DNA of 63,824 nt, counting the filler, from Reclinomonas americana ATCC 50394 (taxonomy: Eukaryota): NCBI GenBank assembly GCA_048213135.1. It is 5 parts of 5 records of this genome, joined end to end, with 100 filler letters (N's around TTAATTAATTAA, not from the genome) between each part and the next. Parts side by side here need not be neighbours in the genome. Positions count along the whole stretch, not along the records: positions 18,281 to 47,033 come from PS015431.1; 4 more parts are not named here. One strand, written 5' to 3'. Positions 11,770-46,563 of this stretch are shown in pieces (the stretch's first letter is position 1; each line of letters opens with the position of its first letter). The notes beneath the pieces were generated by a model, which was given only the letters and a program-made list of their open reading frames with translations, had not been told where the DNA came from and made no database searches. The translations under genes and the position numbers were made by a program.

Positions 11770-14700
11770 CTACTCCTCCGCCGCCGCCTCGTCGTCCGCC
11801 AGCACCTTGCGTCGCTTGGTCGGCATTGCCGCGTCACCACGCACGCTGCGCTCGAGTTCCTCCAGCCCGAGACACCCCAATTCATCATCGTCATCGTCGT
11901 CACCCGCATCGTCGCCTTTCTCTTTCTCTGCATTGGCACCGCCTGTCCACTCGCATTCACCCTCGTCGCCGTCGCCGTCGCCGTCTTCGCTCTTCACCAC
12001 CGTGCCGACCCCACTGCCCGACGCACCGTCCATGTCGTCGTCCATGGCTTCGACGGTGGTTGTCGTGGTGGCGGCAGCAGTCTCCGCGACGAGTGGACTG
12101 GTCACTGTTGAGTGCACAAAGGGCAGCAGCGACGCAATCTCGTCCGAGTCGAGCAGGGCGCCACGAGAGAGCTCCGAGTCGGCCGGCTCGCGATCCTCCT
12201 CGGGGAACGTCTCATTGATACCGTCTGTGCAGCCAGGGAGTGTCAGTCAAGCGCGACGCAGTAGCAGAGGCAGCAGCAGCAGAAGACGCACCTCGTCGGA
12301 ACTCAAAGATGCGCTTCAACTCGTCCTTGCCCAACGTGGGGTTCTTGTCGACCACCACGTCGACAATGACGTTGGAGAGCTGGTTCTTGCTCATCTGGCG
12401 CTGCAGCACGCGCTCCTCCAGAGTACCGACGCAGATCAGGCGGTAGATGAACACTTCCTTTTTCTGCCCGTCGCGCCACACACGAGCCTGGTGACGACTC
12501 AGCATGTCAGCGACTGGCTCGAGGAGGGAGAGGGAACACAACAAAGAGAGAGGTCACCATGGCCTGCTGGTCGGCAGCCGGGTTCCACTCGGGGTCGTAC
12601 ATGACGAGACGATTGGCACCGATGAGGTTCAGTCCTTTTTTCGTGGCGAGATGGTGAGCAACGGAGCGATGGCGACGACGGGATTGGGAACAGTACCGAC
12701 ACCACCGGCCTTGGTCGACAGGAGGAACACGCGCTCATTCGACCACGAAGCATTGAAGCGGTCCACTGAAAACGGGGAGGGAGGCGATGAGCGCCACCAG
12801 CACACACACACATGCATGTCTCGCACCACAAGCATAAACACACCAATCTGCTGACGCTTCTCGGCCGCCGTACTGCCGTCGAGACGCACAAAGGCAAGAT
12901 TGAGCGCCTGCAGCATCGGCACCATGCCGTCGAGACTCTGCGAGAAAGCGTCAACAGAAAGACAGACAACGAGACGGGTGGATGGTGACTGAGAGACAGA
13001 CCTGCGTGCTCTGCGACACAATGACCACCTTGTCGGTGGTCTCCTCGCGAATGCGGCTCAACAGGCGCGAGAGGACCAGCATCTGCATGCAAGCACAGGT
13101 CAATACAACTGTGAACCAACGAGCTAGTAAGGACAGCCAGCAAACCTTGCCAGACAGCGAGTAGTCGCCACACAACACGGCACCGTCGGCCAACTGCGCT
13201 TGCAGGTACTCGGGGGCAAACTTGGCGCGCACGCCATCCCACAACTCGTGATCCCACACCTGCTCAATGTCGCCATCGCCCTCCAGCGTGGCCATTTTCT
13301 TTTCTGCACACGACAGCACTCATGAGAAAGCGAAGGAGAGACAGAAATGACGTCCGCTGACTACGACGAACCGGCGGCCTTCAAGATGAGGTCGGGATGC
13401 GACAGCAGCTTGCGCAGTGCTTGAATGTACAAAAAGGCGGCATTCTGCAGAACAGAGACGCAGTCAGTGTAAGGAATGAACGCAGCAGTAGCAGAGCAGC
13501 ACGTGCCTTGTCTTGGCCTTGCGCAGAGCCTCCGCCGCGAGCCGAGATCAGTCGGTTCACAAAGCGTTGCGAGACGAGGTGGGCGTAAATCTCCTCCTGC
13601 AGTGGCGACATGCGCACAAACAGCACCAACTCGGCTGCACGGGCATTGAGGATGAGTGTCACGAGACGCAGTGATGGCGACAACAAAGACAAACCCTTGG
13701 GTGGCAGATGTTTCTGCAAAATGTCGGCCGTGCGACGAAGAAGAAACATTTGCGTGAGACGCATCAGCTCCTGACCACGAGAGGCACCGAGCGCCTTTTC
13801 GGCTGGTGTCGCTGACGGCTCGCGGGAGCGCGTAATGGGTTCACCGAAAATCTTGTTGAAGGTCTTGTCGTCGGCGAGCGAACCTGTACATGTGGAATAC
13901 ACCATCAGCCACACGTACGCGGCGCACGACTGTGAACGGGACTGACCGGGATTGACAAACGAGACGCAGGCGTAGAACTCGGTGAGGTTGTTCTGGATCG
14001 GCGTGCCGGTGAGAATGATGCGACGTGGCGTACGCATTGCGTTGAGGCTCTTGAACGTGGCCACCTGTGTGTGGAGTCAGGCAGTGACACACAAAAAGTG
14101 GAGAGGGCATGGACGTGCGCACCGTGTGGTTCTTCAGCCGATGGCCCTCGTCGCACACCAGCAGGTCGCACGGACATTCGGCGAGCAGCGCTCCCTGCAC
14201 TCGCCACGCGGTGAGATGCAAGACGAGGCAAGGGGAAGAGAGGGAGGGAAGAGAGGCTGGTACGCAACGTGAATACGAAAGTGCTCGTACGAGATGAGCA
14301 GGATGGGCTGAAAGCCGACACGAAAGTCGTTGATCTTTTGCTCCACCACCGCCTTGTTGGTGCCGCCGGAGCACACAATGGTCTTCAGGCGCGACGAGGT
14401 CAGCCACTTGCGAATCTCCTTCTCCCAGTTGTTCACCAGCGACGCCGGCGTCACCACAATTCCTTTTTGCACCAGTGGGCGACCCTGCAGCAACGCGTTG
14501 TGAGCGGTGACAGACAAGGCGGGCGGCGGAGACAAGCACACACCTCCGGCCCATGGTTCGTCAGTGCCCACAGCAGCGAAATGGTCTGCAGGGTCTTGCC
14601 GAGACCCATGCGGTCGGCAAGAATGGCACCGTAGCCGCCAGTGCTGCACAAGTAAAACAATAAAGGAAAGTGAGTGGCCCGCATGCAGTCATCTTGCCGG

Positions 14701-35019: not shown

Positions 35020-38000
35020 TTGGAGGTGAAGGGCGACCGCGATCGCATGCGTGAGCAGGTCGATCGACTCAAGTCGGAGAACGAGCGCATGCTGCAGGAG
35101 AAGCGCCTGCAGAGCGAGTTGCAGGTACATGTGTACACGCCGCTCCTTCCCTTGCATGCACCGCCGCACTCATCACCCTCGATCGCAGACTCGATCGCAG
35201 GAGAAGCTGGCGGCCATTTCACAGGCGCACTCTCTGAGCGAGGAAGAGCTGCGCAGTGCGCTGGTGAATGCCGAGCAGCAGCGTGAGATCGCACAGCAGC
35301 TGCTGAACGAGCGCAACGCACGTCTCTCCGAGGTGATGGCGGCGCTGGAGACGGAACGGAGTCGCGCAACCTCGCTTGCCGACGAGAACTCGGTGCTCAA
35401 CGATCGGCTGGACCGGCTGGCGCGTCTGAGCGACGATCGCCTCACGCAGGCGCAGGCGCTGGTCGACGAGTTGACTCATTCGCGTGATCGTGCCGCGGCC
35501 GACACGTCGCGTGTGTCCACTGCTCTCGATCTGGCACGCAGCGAGTCCGAGCACTTGCGACAGGAGCTCATCAATCGCGACTCGACCATTTACCAGATCC
35601 GTTCGGAGTTGCGCAAGGCCACTGGCACGTGCGACGAGCTGGAGAACACCATTCGCAAGCGCGACCGTGATTTTGAGGAGGAGCGGCGGCAGGAGCAGCA
35701 GGTGCGGCAGGCGGCCGACGAGCGACACGCCCTGCGAGTGCGCGATCTTGAGCAACAACTCAAGGCGTCGGCGACTGAGGTGGAGCGGCTGTCGGAGGAG
35801 AACTCACGCCTGCGACGAAGCACCGACCAGCGTACCGGCGATCTGCAAGCGGAGTTGCTGGAGAAGACGACCAGTCTGTCGCGTGTGCAGGGCGAGGCGG
35901 ACGAGCTGCGCAATCAAGTCGGACAGCTGCGTGTGGATGTGTCCCGCAGCGATTCGGAGTGCGAGGCACTGCAGGCCAAGGTTTTGGCACTGACGGCACA
36001 ACTGGCCGAGGCGAAGCGCAACGTGGAGGCTCTGCGCACGGAGGCGGCGGCGGCGGCGGCGCTGCGCAATGACGCATCGTCGGATTCGGAGCGGCAGCGA
36101 GTCATGCTGGAGGCGCGAGTGCGGTCGATGGAGGAGGACGCGGCGGAGGTGGCGCAGGAGCGCCGCCGGCTGTTGGACGAGCTCGAGAAGGCGCGCAAGG
36201 CGGCCTCGCTGGCACAGACCGAGCGCTCCGACATTGCCGCACAGATGGCGAAGCTGTACGGCCAGCTGCACGAGTTGACAACATCGAAGGACGAGCTGAT
36301 CTCGGAGCGCACTCGCATGCTGCGCGAGCACCAGGCTGCTCTTGATGCCCTTCGCGCGCAGCGTGAAGCACTGGAGGTGCAGCTGTCCGACGCCCTGCGT
36401 CGTGCCGAGGTGAGCGTGACTCGCATTGACAAACTCCTCCCGAGCCGTGCGTCTCATTTTGCTTTTTTACCTCTCACAGGCACTCGAAGTGGAACTGAAT
36501 CACGAGCGACGTGAGCGCGCCGACCTGGAACACCGCCTGAAGCGCGAGCGTGAGGAGTCGACGGCCACCATCTCGAACCTCCGGCAGGAGCGTGAACAGC
36601 TGGTGGTGTCGTTGGAGACGGCGGAGATCAAGATCCAGACGTTGACGCGCGAGCGCGACGAACTGCTGGCGCAGTTGCGCCGCCTACAGGATCAGCTCGG
36701 CACCGTCACCAGTGAACGCGACCAGCTGCTGCTGCGTGTGACGGAAATCACTCAGCGTGCCACCACGCTGATGGAGTCGCTGGAGAGCATCACCATCGAG
36801 TACGAGGAGCTGGTGGAGCAGCACCGCGTGGTGACGGTGAAGCTGGAGTCGACAGTGTTCGACTCGTCGAAGCAGTACGCGACGCAGGGTACGCGCATTG
36901 ACGAGCTGACGGCGGAGGTGCGCCGGCTGACCGAGGAGCTGCGACTGACGCGACAGGCCCACGACGACACCGTGTCGCGGTTGCAGAACGAACGCGATCG
37001 GTTGGCGTCGGATGCCGCAGATGAACGTCGTCGCTTCCAAGACGATGCGGCCGCGCTCCGCCAGCAGTTGCTCGATACGGGCGCCGACCGCGACGACCTG
37101 GCACGCCGCTTGGCCACCGTGCAGGAGGCTGCCGATGAGGCCAACCGTCGCAACGCCGCCAAGATCGAGCAGCTCAACAATTCGCTGCAGCACACTGGCG
37201 AACGCTTGTCTTCCACCGAGCAGTCACTGGCGCAGTACACGGCGGAGCGCGACGATCTGCGGCGCCTGCTGGAGGAGACGCGCCACGCTCTCGACCGCTC
37301 CACTGCCGAATGCGGTGACTTGCAGGTGCGCCTGGCTGACAAGGACGTGGAGGCCGACCGGATGCGCGTGCAAATCGACCAGGCGAACCAGCGTGCGGAC
37401 CAGATGACGACTGAGCGGGCGCACCTCGAGGACGAGTTGCGTGCCGACCGGCAGCGTGCGGCCACGCAGCTGGCCGCTCTGCAAAATCAGTACGACACGG
37501 CGGCGAGCGACCGTGATCGTGCCGTGGAGGAGGGCCGTGAAGCGCGCCGCGTGCATGAGGAAGCGGTGCACAAGCTGGAGCAGTCGGCGGACGACTTGCG
37601 TGCGGAGCGCGACCGCCTGGCTCGTGAGCTGGAACGTGTGAAGCAGCAGTTGGCAGCCACTGCCGCCCAGCGCGACGAGCTCAACACCCGACTCGGCGAG
37701 CAAGCTGAGGCACTCAACGTCGCCAATGCGCAGTTGGCAGGTTTGTCTTGTTTGTTGTTTTCTTCACACACGCACGCACACACAATGCTGCCAGTCCCGG
37801 CTCACTCGCTTTCTGCTCTGTTGTACTCAGATGTGCTTCGCGAATTGCGCGAAACGTCGACCAAGCGCGACGAGCTGCAAACCCTGGCCAACAAGCAAGA
37901 AGGGCAGATTGACTCGATGCGCCGGCAGCACAAGGAGGAGTTGGCGATTCTCGGCCGCGAGCGTGACCGCTTGAAGGAGGAACTCGCGGCCGCGCAGGAG

Positions 38001-41000
38001 GCCGCGACACAGGCGGCAGCTGAGCGCGACCGGCTGCGTGGCGAGTTGCACCGTGCACGCTCGGAGATTGAGGCGCACCGCGCCACCATTCTGGATCTCA
38101 CGGGCGAGCGCAACCGCTTGCTCGATGAGATTGAGCGACTGAAGCGCGAGTACGTGCTGGAGATCGATCGCGTGCTGCTGGAGGTGCAGCAGCTGCAGCA
38201 GATGTTGGCCGACCGCACANNNNNNNNNNNNNNNNNNNNNNNNNNNNNNNNNNNNNNNNNNNNNNNNNNNNNNNNNNNNNNNNNNNNNNNNNNNNNNNNN
38301 NNNNNNNNNNNNNNNNNNNNNNNNNNNNNNNNNNNNNNNNNNNNNNNNNNNNNNNNNNNNNNNNNNNNNNNNNNNNNNNNNNNNNNNNNNNNNNNNNNNN
38401 NNNNNNNNNNNNNNNNNNNNNNNNNNNNNNNNNNNNNNNNNNNNNNNNNNNNNNNNNNNNNNNNNNNNNNNNNNNNNNNNNNNNNNNNNNNNNNNNTCGA
38501 GCAGCTGGAGAAGGTCATTGACGAGCTGCGCAAGCAGCTGCAGACGGCACTTGCAGAGCGCGACGATGCCCGGCTGCAGCTGATGGTGGCTCTGGAGCAG
38601 CTGCGACACTTGAGTCAGGTGAAGGGCCGCGTGCAGGACCAGCGCGATGCGGTGGAAGCGGAACTGGACGACACAGTCAAGGAGCGCAACCAGAAGAATG
38701 CCGAGGCCAATGCGGCCATTGCACAGCTGGACTCGTGCAACAAGTTCCGCGGACGCACCATTCAGCAACTGGAGGATGACCGTGACAACCTGCAGCGTCG
38801 TGTGGACTTGCTGGTACGTACAAATAAGTCATCCTGAGCCGGAAGTAGTGATGAGCTGATCGTTTGTTTGTGGCAGACTCCGCGTACGTTGATGGTGGAA
38901 ATGTGGAGCAACCGACAGATCCCGGTGACGGTGAATGGTCTCACGCCGGTGCGCAAGATTCGTGAGCAGACGGCCAAGGCCGCCGGCCTGCCCAAGTCGA
39001 CTGCGCGGTACATGTCGATCGCCGATGCTGGCCGCGTGCTGCCGATGGATCCGGCCCTGACAGTGGCTGACGCCGGCATTCTGCACACGCCAGTGGTGCA
39101 AGCGGTGCGTGATCACTCCCGAGAGTTGATAATGGATCTATGGGCGCGAATTTGCTCACTGACGTGATATTTGCAGTCGCTCGACTCGTACGCCGTGGAT
39201 GTGAGTTCGCCAAGCGGTATCAAGACTCGCCTCACCGACGTGACTCGTTGCGTGTGCTCTGCTTGCTTCGCGTCACACATATTATTATGCTTACGGGTTC
39301 ATGACATGCATGTCTGCAGCTTCGGATCCGATCCGACGGCTCAAGCACGCCGTGTTGGCGCTGGAGACGGTGTCGGTGGACTATGTGGATCACGTGCAGC
39401 TCCTGGGTCGCAATCTGGCCCCCATCGATGGGCCGGACGACGAGACGTGCGGCGCTGCTGGCATCGAGCACAACTCGGTGGTCGGAGCGGTGCGTTGTCA
39501 TTGTTTTGATCGTTTCTATTCGTGATGCGCTACTGATGTTCGCACGCGAAACAGCGCTGGAAGGAGATGCCGCTGAATCTGCGCACGTGGACCGGCCGCC
39601 AGGAGACGCTCTCTGTGAAGCGTTGCGTGATTGTCTGCGTTGTTTGTTGGCACCTGTATGTGTGTTTTCCCAACAAATGTTTCTCCGCTCTTCGCGCAGC
39701 GGTGACGCAACTGGAGGCGCTGGAGAACCACGTGGTGCAGTGCGAGAGCCTGCCCAAGACGTCGATTCCGTACATTTTCTTCCGCCACGGCACGCGCGAC
39801 ATTCCAAAGGAGCCGTCGATGCGTCTCGCCGATCTGGGTCTCAAGGGCGGCGAGATCCTCACTGCCGTTTCGTGCACCGAGTGCGGAAGCGCCTTGTTGC
39901 TGTGTTGTTGCTGACACGCACGCACACCTGTGTGTACACGCAGACTCTGACGACGCTGTCGGTGGACGTGGTGACACCGTCGGCCACCACGCTGCGCATC
40001 ACCAGCCTGCGTCGTGAGTACAATGCCTTGTTGTGCGTGTGCACAATGTTGTCACTCACTGATGCTGGCGACTGCAGCGACGCACACGATCNNNNNNNNN
40101 NNNNNNNNNNNNNNNNNNNNNNNNNNNNNNNNNNNNNNNNNNNNNNNNNNNNNNNNNNNNNNNNNNNNNNNNNNNNNNNNNNNNNNNNNNNNNNNNNNNN
40201 NNNNNNNNNNNNNNNNNNNNNNNNNNNNNNNNNNNNNNNNNNNNNNNNNNNNNNNNNNNNNNNNNNNNNNNNNNNNNNNNNNNNNNNNNNNNNNNNNNNN
40301 NNNNNNNNNNNNNNNNNNNNNNNNNNNNNNNNNNNNNNNNNNNNNNNNNNNNNNNNNNNNNNNNNNNNNNNNNNNNNNNNNNNNNNNNNNNNNNNNNNNN
40401 NNNNNNNNNNNNNNNNNNNNNNNNNNNNNNNNNNNNNNNNNNNNNNNNNNNNNNNNNNNNNNNNNNNNNNNNNNNNNNNNNNNNNNNNNNNNNNNTACAG
40501 ACATTGGGAGGGGAGCTGCAATCGTTTATATGTGTGTTCTGACCATGGTCGTGATGCCGCAGCCAACGAAACTGTGCTGTCACTGAAGGAGCGTGTGTGC
40601 CGCGATGAGGGCATGTTGGCAAGCTCGGCCCCGTTCCTTGTCTTGTCGGCATTTGATGGAGCTGTGCTTCCGGGCAACGACGCCAGCTCGCTGCTGCAGG
40701 CCGGCCTGAAACCCAAGTGGGTTCTGCGAGCGGTGAGTGTGTGGTTTGCGGCGATAAGTGTGAAAGGAAATAACTGCTCACTGAACTCGGTGCTGATTGC
40801 AGAACTGGTCGACGCGCAAGCTCCCAGTCAAGACGTGGATGCAGCGCGTGCACGAGATCGAAGTCTCTCGTGCGTCATTTTCTACGATTCCTCTCTCTCT
40901 CTCAACCCCATCAATGCTGATTCTTGCTTCTCCGAACTGTGCAGCCACCACCACGATCCAGGAGGTGTGCGAGATGGTGGCGGCAGCCGAGAGTGTGCAG

Positions 41001-44000
41001 GAGGCGTCGGTGCAGTATGTGCGTGTGGCCCATGGCGACCGCAAGCTGGGCGAGAACCCGGATCTTACTCTTGGCGAGGCCGACCTGCTGGAGGCCGCTC
41101 AGCTCGACGCAGTTGCGTAGCCACATTGAGTGTTTCTTGTTGTTTGTCGCACGACTCAACATGGCTTCCAATCTGCACAGACCCTGGAGCAGCCAACACG
41201 CGCGAAATCGAAGCGCAGTGACCTGTTTGGTCAAAAGTCGCACGACGTTGGAGAGCGGCGTGGTGCCATGGCCGCCGCGCAGGCTGCGTTCGTCAACTAC
41301 TTTGACAACGACGACGACGACACTACCGATCAGATTGTGCCTCCGTCCATGCCCAAGTTTACACCTGGCAACCCATACCACTTCCGTGTGCGCTCCAGGA
41401 AGCGCCGCTCAAAGGTTTCAGGCAACTCGGTACGTGTGTGCCTGCGCCATGCTTGTCTGCGTCCCCAGTTTCGTGTTGGTGACGTACATTTTTCCCCTCT
41501 TCTTTTTTGCAGTATCCACTGGATCCGCAGTTCAAGGTCGTGCTGCTCGGTGAGTGTGTGTTCATGTACACTCCACCCCGTGCCGTGGTGCTCACTCACA
41601 TCTCGCGCCACAGAGACGGAGATGAGCGCGACCTTTGTCGATTTCTGGGGCTTTGTCACGGTGCTGCAGCGCTTCTCCAACCAGAGCAGCTTGTCGGCAG
41701 CCTTCCAGTATGTGTTCCCGAAGCTGCGCCCGAGCATGACTCTCTGCACCTACTCGATGTTCCTCAACAATGTCGAGCACCAGGTGAGTGTCTCCTTCGT
41801 GTTGCTGCTTGCCTGCCTGCGCACCGCGTTGCTGCTCACCCTTTCGTCTCGCAGTGCACGGTGCAAAAGCGCCCGCAGCTGTTCGAGGAGTTCGACAATG
41901 AGGGCGAGAACAACGAACTCGCGGCACTCATCAGTGCCAGTGACGAGGAGGTGTTCCTGATGGACGTGGGCCGCATGGATCCCAACGACGAGCTGATCAT
42001 CAAGGTCACGTACGCCATTGAGGCGCAGTACGACGCCGCGTCTCGGTCTCTGATGGCTGCGATTCCTCTGGGACCCCTGCCCGACTCTCACCGGTTTGTT
42101 TGTGCACAAGACGAACCGCATTCACATTTTGTCCACTCACACGCACACAGTGGCACTCCTGGTCGCGAGTTGTTCGACCTGACGTGGAACATGTCGCCAA
42201 CCATTCTCGACGTCCAGTCGCCGTCGCACACCCTGATGCTGAAGCAGACGGAGCATTCGGTGCGTGTGTGTCGCTTCCCTGTTATGGTGCGGAGCATGGA
42301 CTGAACCCGCCGCCGTGTTTCCTTTTTTTGTGTGTGCAGGCCACTGCCATCGCTGTAGCCGGCGATGCGCCGCAGGCGTACGCCGTCGTCAACCTGTATG
42401 TGCGCGACATGCCGTTCCCGCTCTGCACTGTCTTCAAGCACCCGAGCATCCAAGCACGCGACGGCTCCTCGCACTGCCTGGGCATTGCGCTTGTGCCGCC
42501 GAGCGACATTGCCCCGTCCGACATCAACACCGAGGTGGTCTTCATTGTCGACTGCAGTTGCGTCGGCACGCTGATGGGTGTTGGCGATTCATTCACGCAC
42601 GCACGCACTCACTTGCCATCTTCACCACACGCAGGTGGCTCGATGGAGGGCTCGCGTATTGCGGCCGCCCGTATGGCTCTGATGCTGTTTATTCAAAGTC
42701 TCGCCGAAGGCGTCTCTTTCACGATTGTCAAGTGCGTCGGCTGTCGGTGCACAGAGTCTCGTGTGTGTGGTGCTGACTATATTTGTGGCGGCTGGCAGGT
42801 TCGGATCAACGCACGAATTCCTGTGGCCGGAGACGCGACCCAACACCGAGATCACCAACGAAGAGGCGCGCCAGTTCTGCATGCAGCTCAATGCTGACAT
42901 GCAGGGCACGCACCTCGGCCCGGTGTTGGAGGAGATTCATCGCATGCCGGCTGTGGAGGGCAAGAGTCGCCAGGTGTTTGTGTTGACCGACGGACGTGTG
43001 AAGCACAAGCCGGGCTGCCTCGAACTTGGTGCGTGTGTGTGTGTCTGTCTGTCTGTCTGTGCTCGAGCGCCTCCTCTCCATGCTGCCAGTCGACTCACTG
43101 TACCACACTCGCATGCAGTTCGAGCCATGTCCACGACCACTCGTGTGTTTGCTGTGGGTATCGGAGACGAGGTCGACACGCACTTGGTGGTGGAGATGGC
43201 GCGTCTCGGCAATGGCCAGCACGCCTTTGTGGAAATCGACGAGGATGTGGATGTGTTGTCGGAGGTCGTCGTGCAGCAACTCACGGGTGCGTCACTGGGT
43301 TTGGTGTCACTGCCAAGATTGTTTGCCTCACTCACTCACACACACAGCTGCCCATGTGCCTTGCCTCATTGGTACGCGACTGGAGTTCAACTCGCAGCGT
43401 GTGCAACCGCTGTACGAGTATGTACCACCACTGTTTGTCAACTCGCCCACGATCATGTACGCCCACGCACCGGCGCTGTCGGAGCCCCTGTCCTTGGTGT
43501 GCTCGTACACCACAGGCAGTTGCGTACTTGTAATTCTCACACGTACTTCTTCCTCTGTCGTGTCGGTGCTGACTGAATGCACACAGCTCTGGAGCGTAAG
43601 AGCAGTCGTACAGAGGTCAGCTTCCGCGATCCACCTGTTGCCGACTTTACGCACAAGTTGGCCGCCGCACAGCGGACTCGCGATCTCGAGTCTCGCGATG
43701 TGTTTCGTGACCGCTCATTTCCAGTCCCTTTTGTGTCTCCTGTCCACTCATGCCTTTTCATGTTTCTGCGTGTGTGCAGGCCGCGAGAAAAGATCTTCAA
43801 CTTGGCGTTCATGTTTGGCGTTCCCTCGCCGTACACGTGCCTCGTGGTGACCGACATGTCTCCGCAAGCTGGTTTGTGTCACGAGACGAAAATCGCCCCA
43901 GTCACTCACCCTCATCAACTAACGCAAAATGTTGTCGCGCAGCTTCACCGCCTGCCACATACGCCGTGGTACTCAAGTCGCTCATCGAGACCGACAAGAA

Positions 44001-44367
44001 GCCGCGCCGCAACATTATTGTGCGACCAAAGGACGGCTCACCGGTACGTCGGCATGCATTGCCAGCCTGAACAGGGAGAGCTTTCTAATTTTGTTTGTGA
44101 CAGAGTGGTTCACAATCGGCCCGGCGATCCATGTCTGCTATCGGTTCCACACCTCGCGTCGTTTCGTCAAGTGTTGCGCTGTGTTCATGTGTCTTCTCCG
44201 ACTGGGTGTTGACGTCTTGCTTGCAGGTCCGTGGACGCGCCACGAGCGTGGCCGACTCGGCTGAAGGATCGCCGTCGGCGGCGGCGGATGGCACCAGCCT
44301 CATCTCGCCGGCCGGCTCGCGCTCTTCGACGCCATTCAATGGCGTGGACGACGGTTCCGATTCGGCA
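35020..44367 (+). CDS. Giant coiled-coil + tandem ubiquitin-like + VIT + VWA (VWA5A-like) protein; start in gap
   Basis: Heptad-rich exons 35020-38813; UBL-like exons 38877-41111; VIT-like region about 41614-42260; VWA with MIDAS FIVDCSGSM, GT, VFVLTDG and RVFAVGIG. Junctions are frame-consistent GT-AG. Confidence 0.8.
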
Positions 44368-44428
44368 NNNNNNNNNNNNNNNNNNNNCTGCTGCTGCTGC
44401 TGCTGCTGGTCACTCGAGCACGATGAGT

Positions 44429-44842
44429 TTAGGGGCTGAGGAGGGCGGTGCATCCGGGCATGATGAACTCGCGAGCAGCGGTGAGAACCGAGTTGAAGGC
44501 GCGCTTGCTGCCGAGGCGGTTCTTGAGGTTCCACGCGCCCTTGTTGGCAATCAGGCGCCACTTGCGCATGTGCGACGAGAAGTGCAACTCGAGCACAGCC
44601 AGTGCCAGCGCCGTGTACCACAAAATCGAGTCGCCAGAGACCTCTGGCGGCGCCACCGACGCCACTTCGGATTCGGTGTGGCCGGCCATGTACGGCAGGA
44701 GGCTGTTGAGCGACGTCCAGAAGCCGTGCACACTCTGCTCGTACAGCACGCGGCTGAGGTGAACGTTCTCCTCTGCGTGCTGCGCCGAGCCAGGGGGTGA
44801 GCGCTGGCTGCCACTCGACGGCGTCATGATTGGCGTCGACGG
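44429..44842 (-). CDS. VWA5A-type C-terminal domain, probably the last exon of the preceding gene on an inverted contig
   Basis: LYEQSVHGFW...LWYTALALAVLELHF...KWRLIANKGAWNL matches the typical VWA5A/PARP4-like tail (Q..G.W...WATALA..L....W.L...KA..WL). Confidence 0.75.
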   Translation of the reverse strand, partial: PSTPIMTPSSGSQRSPPGSAQHAEENVHLSRVLYEQSVHGFWTSLNSLLPYMAGHTESEVASVAPPEVSGDSILWYTALALAVLELHFSSHMRKWRLIANKGAWNLKNRLGSKRAFNSVLTAAREFIMPGCTALLSP

Positions 44843-45531
44843 NNNNNNNNNNNNNNNNNNNNNNNNNNNNNNNNNNNNNNNNNNNNNNNNNNNNNNNNNN
44901 NNNNNNNNNNNNNNNNNNNNNNNNNNNNNNNNNNNNNNNNNNNNNNNNNNNNNNNNNNNNNNNNNNNNNNNNNNNNNNNNNNNNNNNNNNNNNNNNNNNN
45001 NNNNNNNNNNNNNNNNNNNNNNNNNNNNNNNNNNNNNNNNNNNNNNNNNNNNNNNNNNNNNNNNNNNNNNNNNNNNNNNNNNNNNNNNNNNNNNNNNNNN
45101 NNNNNNNNNNNNNNNNNNNNNNNNNNNNNNNNNNNNNNNNNNNNNNNNNNNNNNNNNNNNNNNNNNNNNNNNNNNNNNNNNNNNNNNNNNNNNNNNNNNN
45201 NNNNNNNNNNNNNNNNNNNNNNNNNNNNNNNNNNNNNNNNNNNNNNNNNNNNNNNNNNNNNNNNNNNNNNNNNNNNNNNNNNNNNNNNNNNNNNNNNNNN
45301 NNNNNNNNNNNNNNNNNNNNNNNNNNNNNNNNNNNNNNNNNNNNNNNNNNNNNNNNNNNNNNNNNNNNNNNNNNNNNNNNNNNNNNNNNNNNNNNNNNNN
45401 NNNNNNNNNNNNNNNNNNNNNCAGCAGCAGCAGCAGTTCCTTTTCTTTAGCAATGCCCACTTTATGTACTCTCATTGTCGTCATCGTCGTCGGTCGTGAG
45501 TTGTCCCACCGCACAAAAGACTTCTCTTTTC

Positions 45532-46563
45532 ATGCCACGGAGCGAGAGTCCACCCGCACATCGCCCCTCGCGACGCCGATCGCGTTCCCGGTCGCCCTCG
45601 CCACGTCGTCGACGTGACGATGACGGCCACGGCCGCGGCCCTCCGCAACATCGCGACTACTCTCCCGACCGCAAGCGGCCTCGTTTCGAGGACGATGGCC
45701 GGCGACCACCTCCACAACGAGACGACGATGATCGACGCGGTGGAGGCGACAGAGGCGACAGAGGAGGTAGGGGAGGAGGAGGACGAGGAGGCAGAGGCAG
45801 AGGCGGGGGCGGACGAGGAAGAGGCGGTCGTCGTCGCACCGAGGACGCTGATGATTCTGCATTCACCTGGGGCAATGCCGAGTTGCGCGCGCACGCACAC
45901 TCGCACTCTCTGCCTCTCACACTCTGTCTCACACACACGCGCACACGCATGCACGCGCGTACGCAGGGTGCTGGCAGAGGAGGAGCGACAAAAAGAAGAA
46001 GACGAAGAGGCGCGAAAAAATCGAGAAAAGCCCAACTTTGAGCGGTCAGGCAAGCTGGTGGAGAACGACGCGACACTGACAGTGGCGGGTGAGGTGCTCA
46101 AGTGGCACGAGCCTCCAGAAGCGCGCATTCCCGACACCAAGTGGCGTCTGTATGTCTTCAAGGGCGAAGATGAAGTCGGCGGTCTGTGCACGACGCGCGC
46201 TTTCTGCATGCGTGCGTGTGTGCGCTCATCATTGTGCGTGCAGAGCCATACAAGCTGCACCGGATGCCAGCGGTGATGTTTGGCCGCGACCGCAAGATTG
46301 TCGACATTCCCACCGACCATCCCTCCTGCAGCAAGCAGCACGCCGTACTCTGCTTCCGCATGCACGAGGAGGTGTCGTTTGACGGCAAGGACGTGCAGCG
46401 CATCATCCGTCCGTACCTCATCGACCTGGAGAGCACCAATGGCACCTACATCAACGGCGACCGCCTGGAAGCGGCGCGGTATTACGAGCTCAAGAGCACC
46501 GATGCGCTCAAGTTTGGACACAGCACGCGCGAGTACGTCTTGCTGCGCGAGGACGAGGACTGA
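45532..46563 (+). CDS. SNIP1: FHA-domain RES-complex splicing factor SNIP1/Pml1/DDL
   Basis: RS/RGG N-terminus, then EKPNFERSGKL, EPPEARIP..KWRLYVFKG, FGRDRKIVDIPTDHPSCSKQHAV, PYLIDLESTNGT and FGHSTREYVLL. Confidence 0.95.

Follow-up and report, generated by a model that had tools for sequence, protein, structure and literature searches.

We analyzed a window of DNA (the whole stretch, 63,824 nucleotides with its filler) from Reclinomonas americana ATCC 50394 (assembly GCA_048213135.1), and within it the locus at positions 35020-44842, which belongs to the part taken from PS015431.1. Our favored reading, which we hold with moderate confidence, is that this locus represents a single intact eukaryotic gene, rich in introns, which spans at least 9.8 kb and comprises about 30 exons. 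Its product would combine a very long coiled coil, an array of ubiquitin-like (UBL) domains and a VIT-vWFA module of the VWA5A type, and would act as a dimeric scaffold linked to the ubiquitin system.

Outside its gaps, the window presents a GC-content of about 58-60%, and it consists of scaffolded DNA with many runs of N and short spliceosomal introns. We built the exons by hand on the + strand from a three-frame translation and from the sequence itself. Between 35020 and 44367, the + strand yielded about 30 exons and 27 introns (GT...CAG, 54-90 nt each), with neither stops nor frameshifts inside the exons of this hand-built model. The visible product contains at least 2,361 residues and the full protein probably exceeds 2,550 residues. 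Five N gaps lie at or beside the locus (34156-35019, 38220-38496, 40092-40495, 44368-44387 and 44843-45421), and they hide the N-terminus, about 92 residues of the coiled coil and parts of UBL4 and UBL5. The order of the domains had been proposed in an original prediction made by inspecting the sequence: a coiled coil, at least six UBL units, a VIT domain, a VWA domain with an intact metal-ion-dependent adhesion site (MIDAS) and a VWA5A-type tail. Exon model and domain searches agree on this order. The features of the locus, including the C-terminal domain (CTD), are listed below.

35020-38813, + strand: coiled-coil region; exons 35020-35124, 35201 (or 35189)-36409, 36480-37740 and 37831-38219, gap 38220-38496, then exon 38497-38813.
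38814-38876, + strand: intron between the coiled coil and UBL1; phase 0, 63 nt, GTACGT...GCAG, with an in-frame TGA at 38835-37.
38877-39104, + strand: UBL1, 76 residues in one exon; fold model, Foldseek matches and a sub-threshold Pfam ubiquitin match.
39177-39489, + strand: UBL2, 80 residues; exons 39177-39246 and 39320-39489 with a phase-1 intron; aligned by hhalign with the UBL1/3/6 profile.
39555-39866, + strand: UBL3, 78 residues; exons 39555-39621 and 39700-39866; the 78-nt phase-1 intron is open in frame.
39944-40091, + strand: UBL4, partial; exon 39944-40013, then 14 nt (40078-40091) of the second exon, the remainder lying in gap 40092-40495.
40563-40732, + strand: UBL5, second exon only (170 nt, 56 residues), the first exon lying in the gap; sub-threshold Pfam ubiquitin match and alignment.
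40803-41111, + strand: UBL6, 78 residues; exons 40803-40869 and 40945-41111; the 75-nt phase-1 intron is open in frame.
41181-41429, + strand: linker exon, 83 residues, with an acidic run, a basic cluster and an in-frame ATG at 41268; no credible Pfam family.
41513-42259, + strand: VIT and hybrid-like segment; exons 41513-41549, 41614-41783, 41855-42093 and 42151-42259; Pfam VIT, collinear with VWA5A-type proteins.
42340-43286, + strand: vWFA with complete MIDAS; exons 42340-42556, 42635-42731, 42799-43028 and 43119-43286; Pfam VWA_3.
43348-44367, + strand: post-vWFA region and low-complexity spacer; exons 43348-43518, 43587-43701, 43780-43871, 43943-44043, 44104-44172 and 44227-44367, followed by the 20-N gap.
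44432-44842, - strand: VWA5A/Vwa1-type CTD (137 residues; stop codon 44429-31), on an inverted 455-bp contig.

The VIT-vWFA module on the + strand (41513-44367) is made of 14 exons. Pfam VIT was matched in two successive exons (E 0.0027 for profile positions 5-54 and E 0.00031 for positions 61-111). Each match falls under the cut-off of 26.5 bits, together they amount to 39.6 bits, and the region is collinear with the VIT domain of the family protein P0073 and of others. VWA_3 was also matched exon by exon (E 7.2e-6 and 0.036). The D-x-S-x-S motif of the MIDAS is split by the intron 42557-42634 and re-formed by splicing, and no MIDAS residue is missing: D-x-S-x-S and the downstream T and D occupy the same columns as in 22 of the 22 aligned homologues. 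The VIT domain and the MIDAS-intact VWA domain of the original prediction are therefore both recovered, the former by Pfam matches in its exons and the latter by such matches together with five MIDAS residues in conserved columns.

The VWA5A-type tail that was also predicted proved to be real, but it reads on the opposite strand: the minus strand of 44388-44842 encodes both the tail and its stop (44429-31). This segment is a 455-bp contig set between the 20-N gap and a 579-N gap, with a CTG/CAG run abutting the former. We spliced the + strand exons by their coordinates, appended the flipped tail and aligned the product using phmmer. Residues 97-848 of this spliced half aligned with residues 29-788 of P0073 (803 aa; E 3e-56), and at least 24 further proteins were aligned likewise. 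Identity to the VWA5A-type homologues ranges from 20% to 29% over about 700 columns. From the vWFA to the CTD, a single phmmer alignment runs through the whole stretch for P0073, and it is split in most other matches.

The tail was further searched by HMMER among 1.84 billion representative sequences, which yielded 30 proteins, several of them C-terminal fragments of VWA5A-like proteins. Pfam scans of 17 of these 30 matches revealed no VIT or VWA domain at E ≤ 0.01. Seven of the eight matches that we inspected are single-copy C-terminal pieces ending in the CTD module, and four of these seven also contain the conserved segment that is found just downstream of the vWFA in the + strand exons. 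A profile built from the tail and 24 of its matches retrieved 60 proteins among those of 747-2,130 residues (E 1.5e-34 to 2.5e-5); VWA_3 is present in all 60 and VIT or VIT_2 in 58, and those that bear a name are called VWA5A, VWA5A-like or VWA5B1. The link between the tail and the VWA5A family came solely from this profile search. Because the flipped tail is collinear with P0073 and other family proteins, we assigned the CTD to the gene; the 455-bp contig is almost certainly inverted in the scaffold and, most simply, corresponds to the last exon. A separate VWA5A gene on the minus strand would be a less simple reading: its entire VIT-vWFA part would need to fit inside the 579-N gap, before the + strand gene with an FHA domain at about 45.5-46.6 kb. 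Judging by this collinearity, the C-terminal half is an ordinary member of the intracellular VWA5A/Vwa1 family of VIT-vWFA-CTD proteins.

A CTD-like module is also found in tandem in four otherwise unannotated proteins (P0001, P0002, P0004 and P0006), with eight stretches in the case of 2,589 residues and four in the 729-residue proteins. These tandem repeats suggest that the CTD is an independent mobile module and not only the tail of VWA5A.

Upstream of the VIT domain, the UBL units are 76-80 residues long and share 11-32% identity with one another and one common hydrophobic pattern. Three unit peptides quoted in the original prediction were found in UBL2, UBL5 and UBL6. That prediction had been made conditional on the repeats modeling as beta-grasp folds, which UBL1 does clearly and UBL6 more weakly. 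The AlphaFold2 model of UBL1 presents a predicted local distance difference test (pLDDT) of 95.3 and a predicted template modeling score of 0.82. Foldseek matched this model to the PDB 135 times at E ≤ 0.001, and the best 50 matches are all ubiquitin-family chains (TM 0.66-0.79), namely those of parkin Ubl, SUMO1, ISG15, NEDD8, ubiquitin or Hub1; here and below, the Foldseek matches listed are ranks 1-50, with similar chains of the listed entries omitted. UBL6 was folded with 25 intron-coded residues retained. Its model reached a mean pLDDT of 69 (65-84 for the blocks outside the insert and below 50 for the insert), the order of its secondary structures is that of UBL1, and all 50 of the matches listed are ubiquitin-family chains, the best with E 1.3e-3. 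The second exons of UBL2 and UBL5 match the second-exon profile of UBL1/3/6 from end to end (hhalign 85.5%, E 5.8e-6). Structure prediction thus assigns a beta-grasp fold to UBL1 and UBL6, and homology suggests the same fold for the remaining units.

Sequence comparisons give weak evidence in the same direction. The best matches to Pfam ubiquitin (PF00240) were obtained for UBL1 (E 0.013, 15.7 bits) and for the second exon of UBL5 (E 0.066, 13.4 bits), and scanning Pfam exon by exon depresses such scores. When the repeat profile was compared to the PDB, 28 of 31 sub-threshold matches were named parkin, NEDD8, ISG15 or SUMO1, and they were aligned in register. UBL1 alone gave five non-significant matches to PDB sequences, two of which are parkin.

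The exon structure of the array is regular. A phase-1 intron interrupts UBL2, UBL3, UBL4 and UBL6 at the identical codon, and UBL1 is the sole single-exon unit. Two exon-size types alternate along the array. One, of 67+167 nt, is seen in UBL3 and UBL6, and the other, of 70+170 nt, in UBL2, in the first exon of UBL4 and in the second exon of UBL5. Given this alternation, the 404-N gap at 40092-40495 may contain either the missing parts of UBL4 and UBL5 or one whole extra unit, so that the array would count six or seven units. The alternating types also suggest that the array expanded when a block of two units was duplicated.

All five visible unit ends carry a C-terminal Ala and no Gly-Gly, as the original prediction had stated of the glycines, and each end is followed directly by the next unit or by the linker. 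Without a Gly-Gly end, the units would be neither releasable nor conjugatable. Tandem beta-grasp units of ubiquitin size could also be expected if the repeats were precursors of releasable ubiquitin-like modifiers, in the fashion of polyubiquitin. We regard this as extremely improbable, given the five Ala ends, identities of just 11-32% between units and the position of the units between other domains. We therefore treat them as fixed UBL domains. In the linker exon that follows (41181-41429), we observed five Asp within six residues and an R/K-rich octapeptide that resembles a nuclear-localization or a dibasic-processing signal.

The N-terminal part of the visible protein is a coiled coil of 1,093 visible residues without a single Pro or Trp, about 70% of which are R, L, E, A, Q or D. 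The hydrophobic contrast at heptad positions a and d is 0.47, relative to 0.27 ± 0.014 in 20 shuffled sequences. Pfam returned only sub-threshold matches to assorted coiled-coil families for these exons. The original reading of about 1000 or more residues of continuous coiled coil is thereby borne out. A search with 579 residues of the coiled coil among proteins of 1,015-2,895 residues returned nothing at E ≤ 1e-10. The first visible intron of this region possesses two in-frame CAG acceptors 12 nt apart (35189/35201), and the choice between them would change the length of the protein by four residues.

Two copies of the last 105 residues of the coiled coil were modeled together and gave a parallel in-register dimer with an interface score (ipSAE) of 0.50, relative to 0.00 for the best control. 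Among proteins solved as pairs of one chain, 21 of 30 attained this mark; among those solved as single chains, 0 of 23 did. Contacts agree between the runs to at least 87%, with a partner pLDDT of 86 or more, and they connect residue i to residue i with an a/d pattern. This model supports, but does not show, that the coiled coil pairs as a parallel dimer; since coiled-coil dimers are abundant among solved structures, the pass may partly reflect likeness to them. The original prediction had further suggested a filament. Nothing was found in its favor, and the model speaks only for a parallel dimer of the last 105 residues. The rise of a coiled coil is about 0.148 nm per residue, so that 1,100-1,200 or more residues would form a stalk of about 160 nm.

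Splice phase and splice-site quality indicate that all these parts quite likely lie on a single mRNA. The two introns that join them, 38814-38876 (63 nt) between the coiled coil and UBL1 and 41112-41180 (69 nt) between UBL6 and the linker, are both in phase 0. The former had been singled out in the original prediction for its phase-0 donor and its intronic stop, and both are found as described (GT at 38814-15, TGA at 38835-37, with the CAG acceptor ending at 38876). We built donor and acceptor matrices from the remaining 25 introns in a leave-one-out manner and used 354 exonic GT and 400 exonic AG as background. The first joining intron scores 5.8 (donor) and 5.0 (acceptor) and the second 4.6 and 7.0, where the other 25 introns range from -1.9 to 9.3 for donors and from -2.3 to 12.5 for acceptors. 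These donor scores are attained by 5.4% (38814) and 11.9% (41112) of the exonic GT, and the acceptor scores by 4.5% (first intron) and 2.3% (second intron) of the exonic AG. The GTTGCG donor of the second joining intron recurs where the integrity of a domain demands splicing, for instance inside the MIDAS motif (42557).

Several observations weigh against the interpretation of a single gene, and we gather them here. In-frame ATGs stand at 38892 (within UBL1, five codons past the acceptor) and at 41268 (within the linker, in a GCCATGG context). If the joining introns were left unspliced, read-through would meet stops at 38835-37 and at 41118-20. Two or three adjacent genes are thus formally possible: a coiled-coil gene ending at the TGA at 38835-37, a UBL array starting from the ATG at 38892 and a VWA5A-type protein starting perhaps from the ATG at 41268. 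These would be expressed separately, or as a polycistron with a trans-spliced leader added at the AG acceptors of the downstream cistrons. The ATGs lie 16 nt (38892) and 88 nt (41268) past the acceptors, the latter in a good initiation context, and the stops come soon after if the introns are retained. Moreover, VWA5A-type proteins usually begin about 20-40 residues before the VIT alignment, and none of the 60 retrieved relatives contains a ubiquitin domain. However, the spacers between such genes would be just about 55 and 148 nt long, when a clear intergenic stretch nearby exceeds 620 nt (33536-34155). The donor, acceptor, length and phase at both joints are typical of the other 25 introns, and the phase-0 design is common to all inter-unit boundaries of the UBL array. 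A protein made of six non-cleavable UBL domains alone would also be odd. We therefore consider adjacent genes unlikely and retain a single gene as the better interpretation.

The state of the assembly also counts against this interpretation, as the gene is interrupted by N gaps, its 5' start falls inside a gap and its last exon needs flipping. With five N gaps in or beside the locus and a 455-bp contig that is clearly mis-oriented, contigs of different loci might have been joined, in which case the three parts (coiled coil, array and VWA5A module) would be unrelated. Each of the two joints in question, coiled coil-UBL1 and UBL6-VIT, lies within a gap-free contig: the first of these (38497-40091) spans the end of the coiled coil and UBL1-4, and the second (40496-44367) runs from the second exon of UBL5 to the post-vWFA region. 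In addition, the unusual UBL unit made of two exons occurs on both sides of the gap with the same exon sizes and the same intron phase, and the flipped CTD is collinear with family proteins. An assembly artefact is therefore very unlikely, and much less likely than adjacent genes.

The remaining points on this side concern the UBL units, the distribution of the architecture and function. Confidence in the model of UBL6 is no more than moderate, all its Foldseek matches have E values above 0.001, and the fold of the 70+170-nt type (UBL2, UBL4 and UBL5) is suggested by alignment. Pfam ubiquitin stayed below its cut-off of 25.4 bits everywhere and was not matched in three of the five units scanned; UBL3 and UBL6, when read through their in-frame introns, gave no Pfam ubiquitin match either. 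Sequence searches of the PDB returned nothing significant (best E 0.35 for the repeat profile, and 0.21). The same architecture was not found elsewhere in searches covering proteins of up to 2,000, 2,895 and 2,130 residues. Lastly, all statements on function derive from domain content alone.

The novelty of the architecture was examined among relatives and in the literature. PF00240 was detected in none of the 60 family members retrieved among proteins of 747-2,130 residues, and our literature search on VIT with ubiquitin-like and coiled-coil domains found no paper describing this combination. The claim of the original prediction that the architecture was undescribed is consistent with both results. 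When one vWFA exon was searched among proteins of 134-2,000 residues, none of 13 candidates scored, in a collection that seemingly lacks the proteins of this genome. Two metagenome loci (L001 and L002) from a scan with the vWFA exon were discarded as chance matches of 14-19 residues only. These searches are consistent with the novelty of a coiled coil and a UBL array placed ahead of a C-terminal half that belongs to a known family.

The neighboring genes are ordinary eukaryotic genes. Upstream of the locus, an open reading frame (ORF) at 33098-33532 was suspected to encode a related coiled coil, and no Pfam family was matched at E ≤ 0.001. Because more than 620 nt of CA-rich sequence lie beyond its stop codon, we treated it as a separate gene. 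This intergenic stretch (33536-34155) is of low complexity of the CA/CACG type, and many introns present a similar flavor. Other features of the window are the following.

45451-46563, + strand: Arg/Gly/Asp-rich protein with an FHA domain (E 1.1e-16).
13384-14076, - strand: piece of an SNF2-related helicase (E 1.5e-18).
30908-31351, - strand: WD40 protein, from the Pfam scan of neighboring genes.
28246-29583, + strand: adenylate-kinase-like ORF, from the same scan.

If the locus is read as one gene, its protein could work as follows. The N-terminal 1,100-1,200 or more residues would constitute one uninterrupted coiled coil, two copies of which would pair in parallel and in register, and the resulting stalk of about 160 nm would anchor or space a dimeric scaffold or adaptor. 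Two strings of fixed UBLs and two VWA5A-type heads would then be displayed at the C-terminal end of the stalk. The array might constitute a built-in, non-removable "pseudo-polyubiquitin" platform for the proteasome, for UBA/UIM proteins or for AAA adaptors, and the head might bind a partner through its MIDAS and neighboring surfaces. Dimerization in the cell, all the partners and the cellular role are what we infer from the domains.

Three lines of evidence point to a scaffold operating within the ubiquitin system. Integral ubiquitin-like domains commonly dock to receptors of ubiquitin or UBLs. The relative P0042 possesses an N-terminal UBA-like domain (UBA_4, E 6e-11; UBA_8, E 5.5e-10). In Dictyostelium, Vwa1 and Vwa2 are described, in the available part of the source, as co-precipitating with the F-box/RING protein FbxwD and with parts of the SCF complex (PMC10539598). 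In P0042 (1,053 residues), the UBA-like domain is combined with VIT and vWFA domains, with a SNARE motif of the synaptobrevin type and with the CTD.

The MIDAS might instead take the UBL array of this same protein as its ligand, either in cis or from one molecule to another, leading to autoinhibition or to head-to-tail, tension-sensitive assemblies rather than to the recruitment of outside receptors. The MIDAS is complete, and the available parts of three reports provide precedents: the MIDAS of Rea1 binds the UBL domains of Rsa4 and Ytm1 (PMC6624252), binding by Mdn1 is described in terms of catch bonds (PMC8837202), and metal-dependent homodimerization of ITIH1 through its MIDAS and autoinhibition of Vwa1 are both discussed (PMC10539598). 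The MIDAS of Rea1 is of a different vWFA lineage, however, and we identified no acidic loop residue comparable to the ligand in Rsa4 and Ytm1, which makes this explanation improbable in our view. A more specific version, a shade less probable still, is a self-engaging mechanical tether. In this version, by analogy, the MIDAS would grip an acidic residue on a UBL of its own or of a neighboring molecule. The stalks would then be joined into tension-sensitive chains or lattices, or the head would stay autoinhibited until a partner from the ubiquitin system displaced the array. If this were true, ubiquitin-like folds would represent the long-sought ligand class of VWA5A-type MIDAS domains. We nevertheless favor a scaffold that presents its array to outside receptors.

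The relatives of VWA5A/BCSC-1 are widespread, intracellular and poorly understood biochemically, and this giant protein would tie the family to the ubiquitin system. We found a single functional handle in print, in the available part of one report, where Dictyostelium Vwa1 associates with an F-box/RING ligase of the SCF type (PMC10539598). The fusion of a VWA5A module to a UBL array represents "Rosetta-stone" evidence, suggesting that the family works with the recognition of ubiquitin or UBLs, and the UBA-like domain of P0042 constitutes a further case that is unrelated to this fusion. This raises the testable idea that the VWA5A head or its MIDAS binds ubiquitin-like folds or their receptors. 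The display itself is unusual, with six or seven divergent, non-cleavable UBLs at the end of a coiled coil of about 160 nm.

The closest known systems are VWA5A/BCSC-1 of animals and Vwa1-7 of Dictyostelium, with which the approximately 790 C-terminal residues of the protein are collinear (E down to 3e-56). The common features of this clade are VIT, a vWFA with complete MIDAS, a conserved post-vWFA segment, a low-complexity spacer and the helical, family-specific CTD. The available part of the structural description gives the order of Dictyostelium Vwa1 and human VWA5A as VIT, hybrid, vWFA, hybrid, helices, a second part of VIT, a disordered spacer and CTD (PMC10539598), and the order found here appears to agree with it. 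The members that we retrieved have lengths of 747-1,504 residues, and in those compared the N-terminus is separated from VIT by 20-39 residues (about 105 in P0042 and P0077). Here, in contrast, the coiled coil, six UBLs and the linker place at least 1,570 visible residues ahead of VIT. This displacement is an architectural difference and no argument against homology of the module.

Other proteins share individual parts of this architecture. PARP4, the vault PARP, is also intracellular and carries a VIT-vWFA pair fused behind other domains (available part of PMC10539598, and partly general knowledge); relative to PARP4, the added parts here are the coiled coil and the ubiquitin-like domains, and no PARP catalytic or BRCT family was found in 21 exon translations at Pfam E ≤ 1, the N-terminus lying in a gap. 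The heavy chains of ITIH proteins possess the same VIT-vWFA core with a MIDAS, but they are described as secreted and without the CTD (PMC10539598, available part), which is present here. Rea1/Mdn1 and its partners Rsa4 and Ytm1 likewise involve a MIDAS-bearing vWFA-type domain and ubiquitin-like domains, according to the available part of PMC6624252; those domains belong to separate proteins of ribosome assembly, whereas both types would here be on one chain, with binding between them only hypothesized. Finally, the beta-grasp fold and the tandem arrangement recall parkin and BAG6/BAT3, in which a UBL is integral, as well as ISG15 and linear polyubiquitin, in which units are in tandem. In contrast to all of these, six or seven divergent units without Gly-Gly would here be fixed in a single giant protein.

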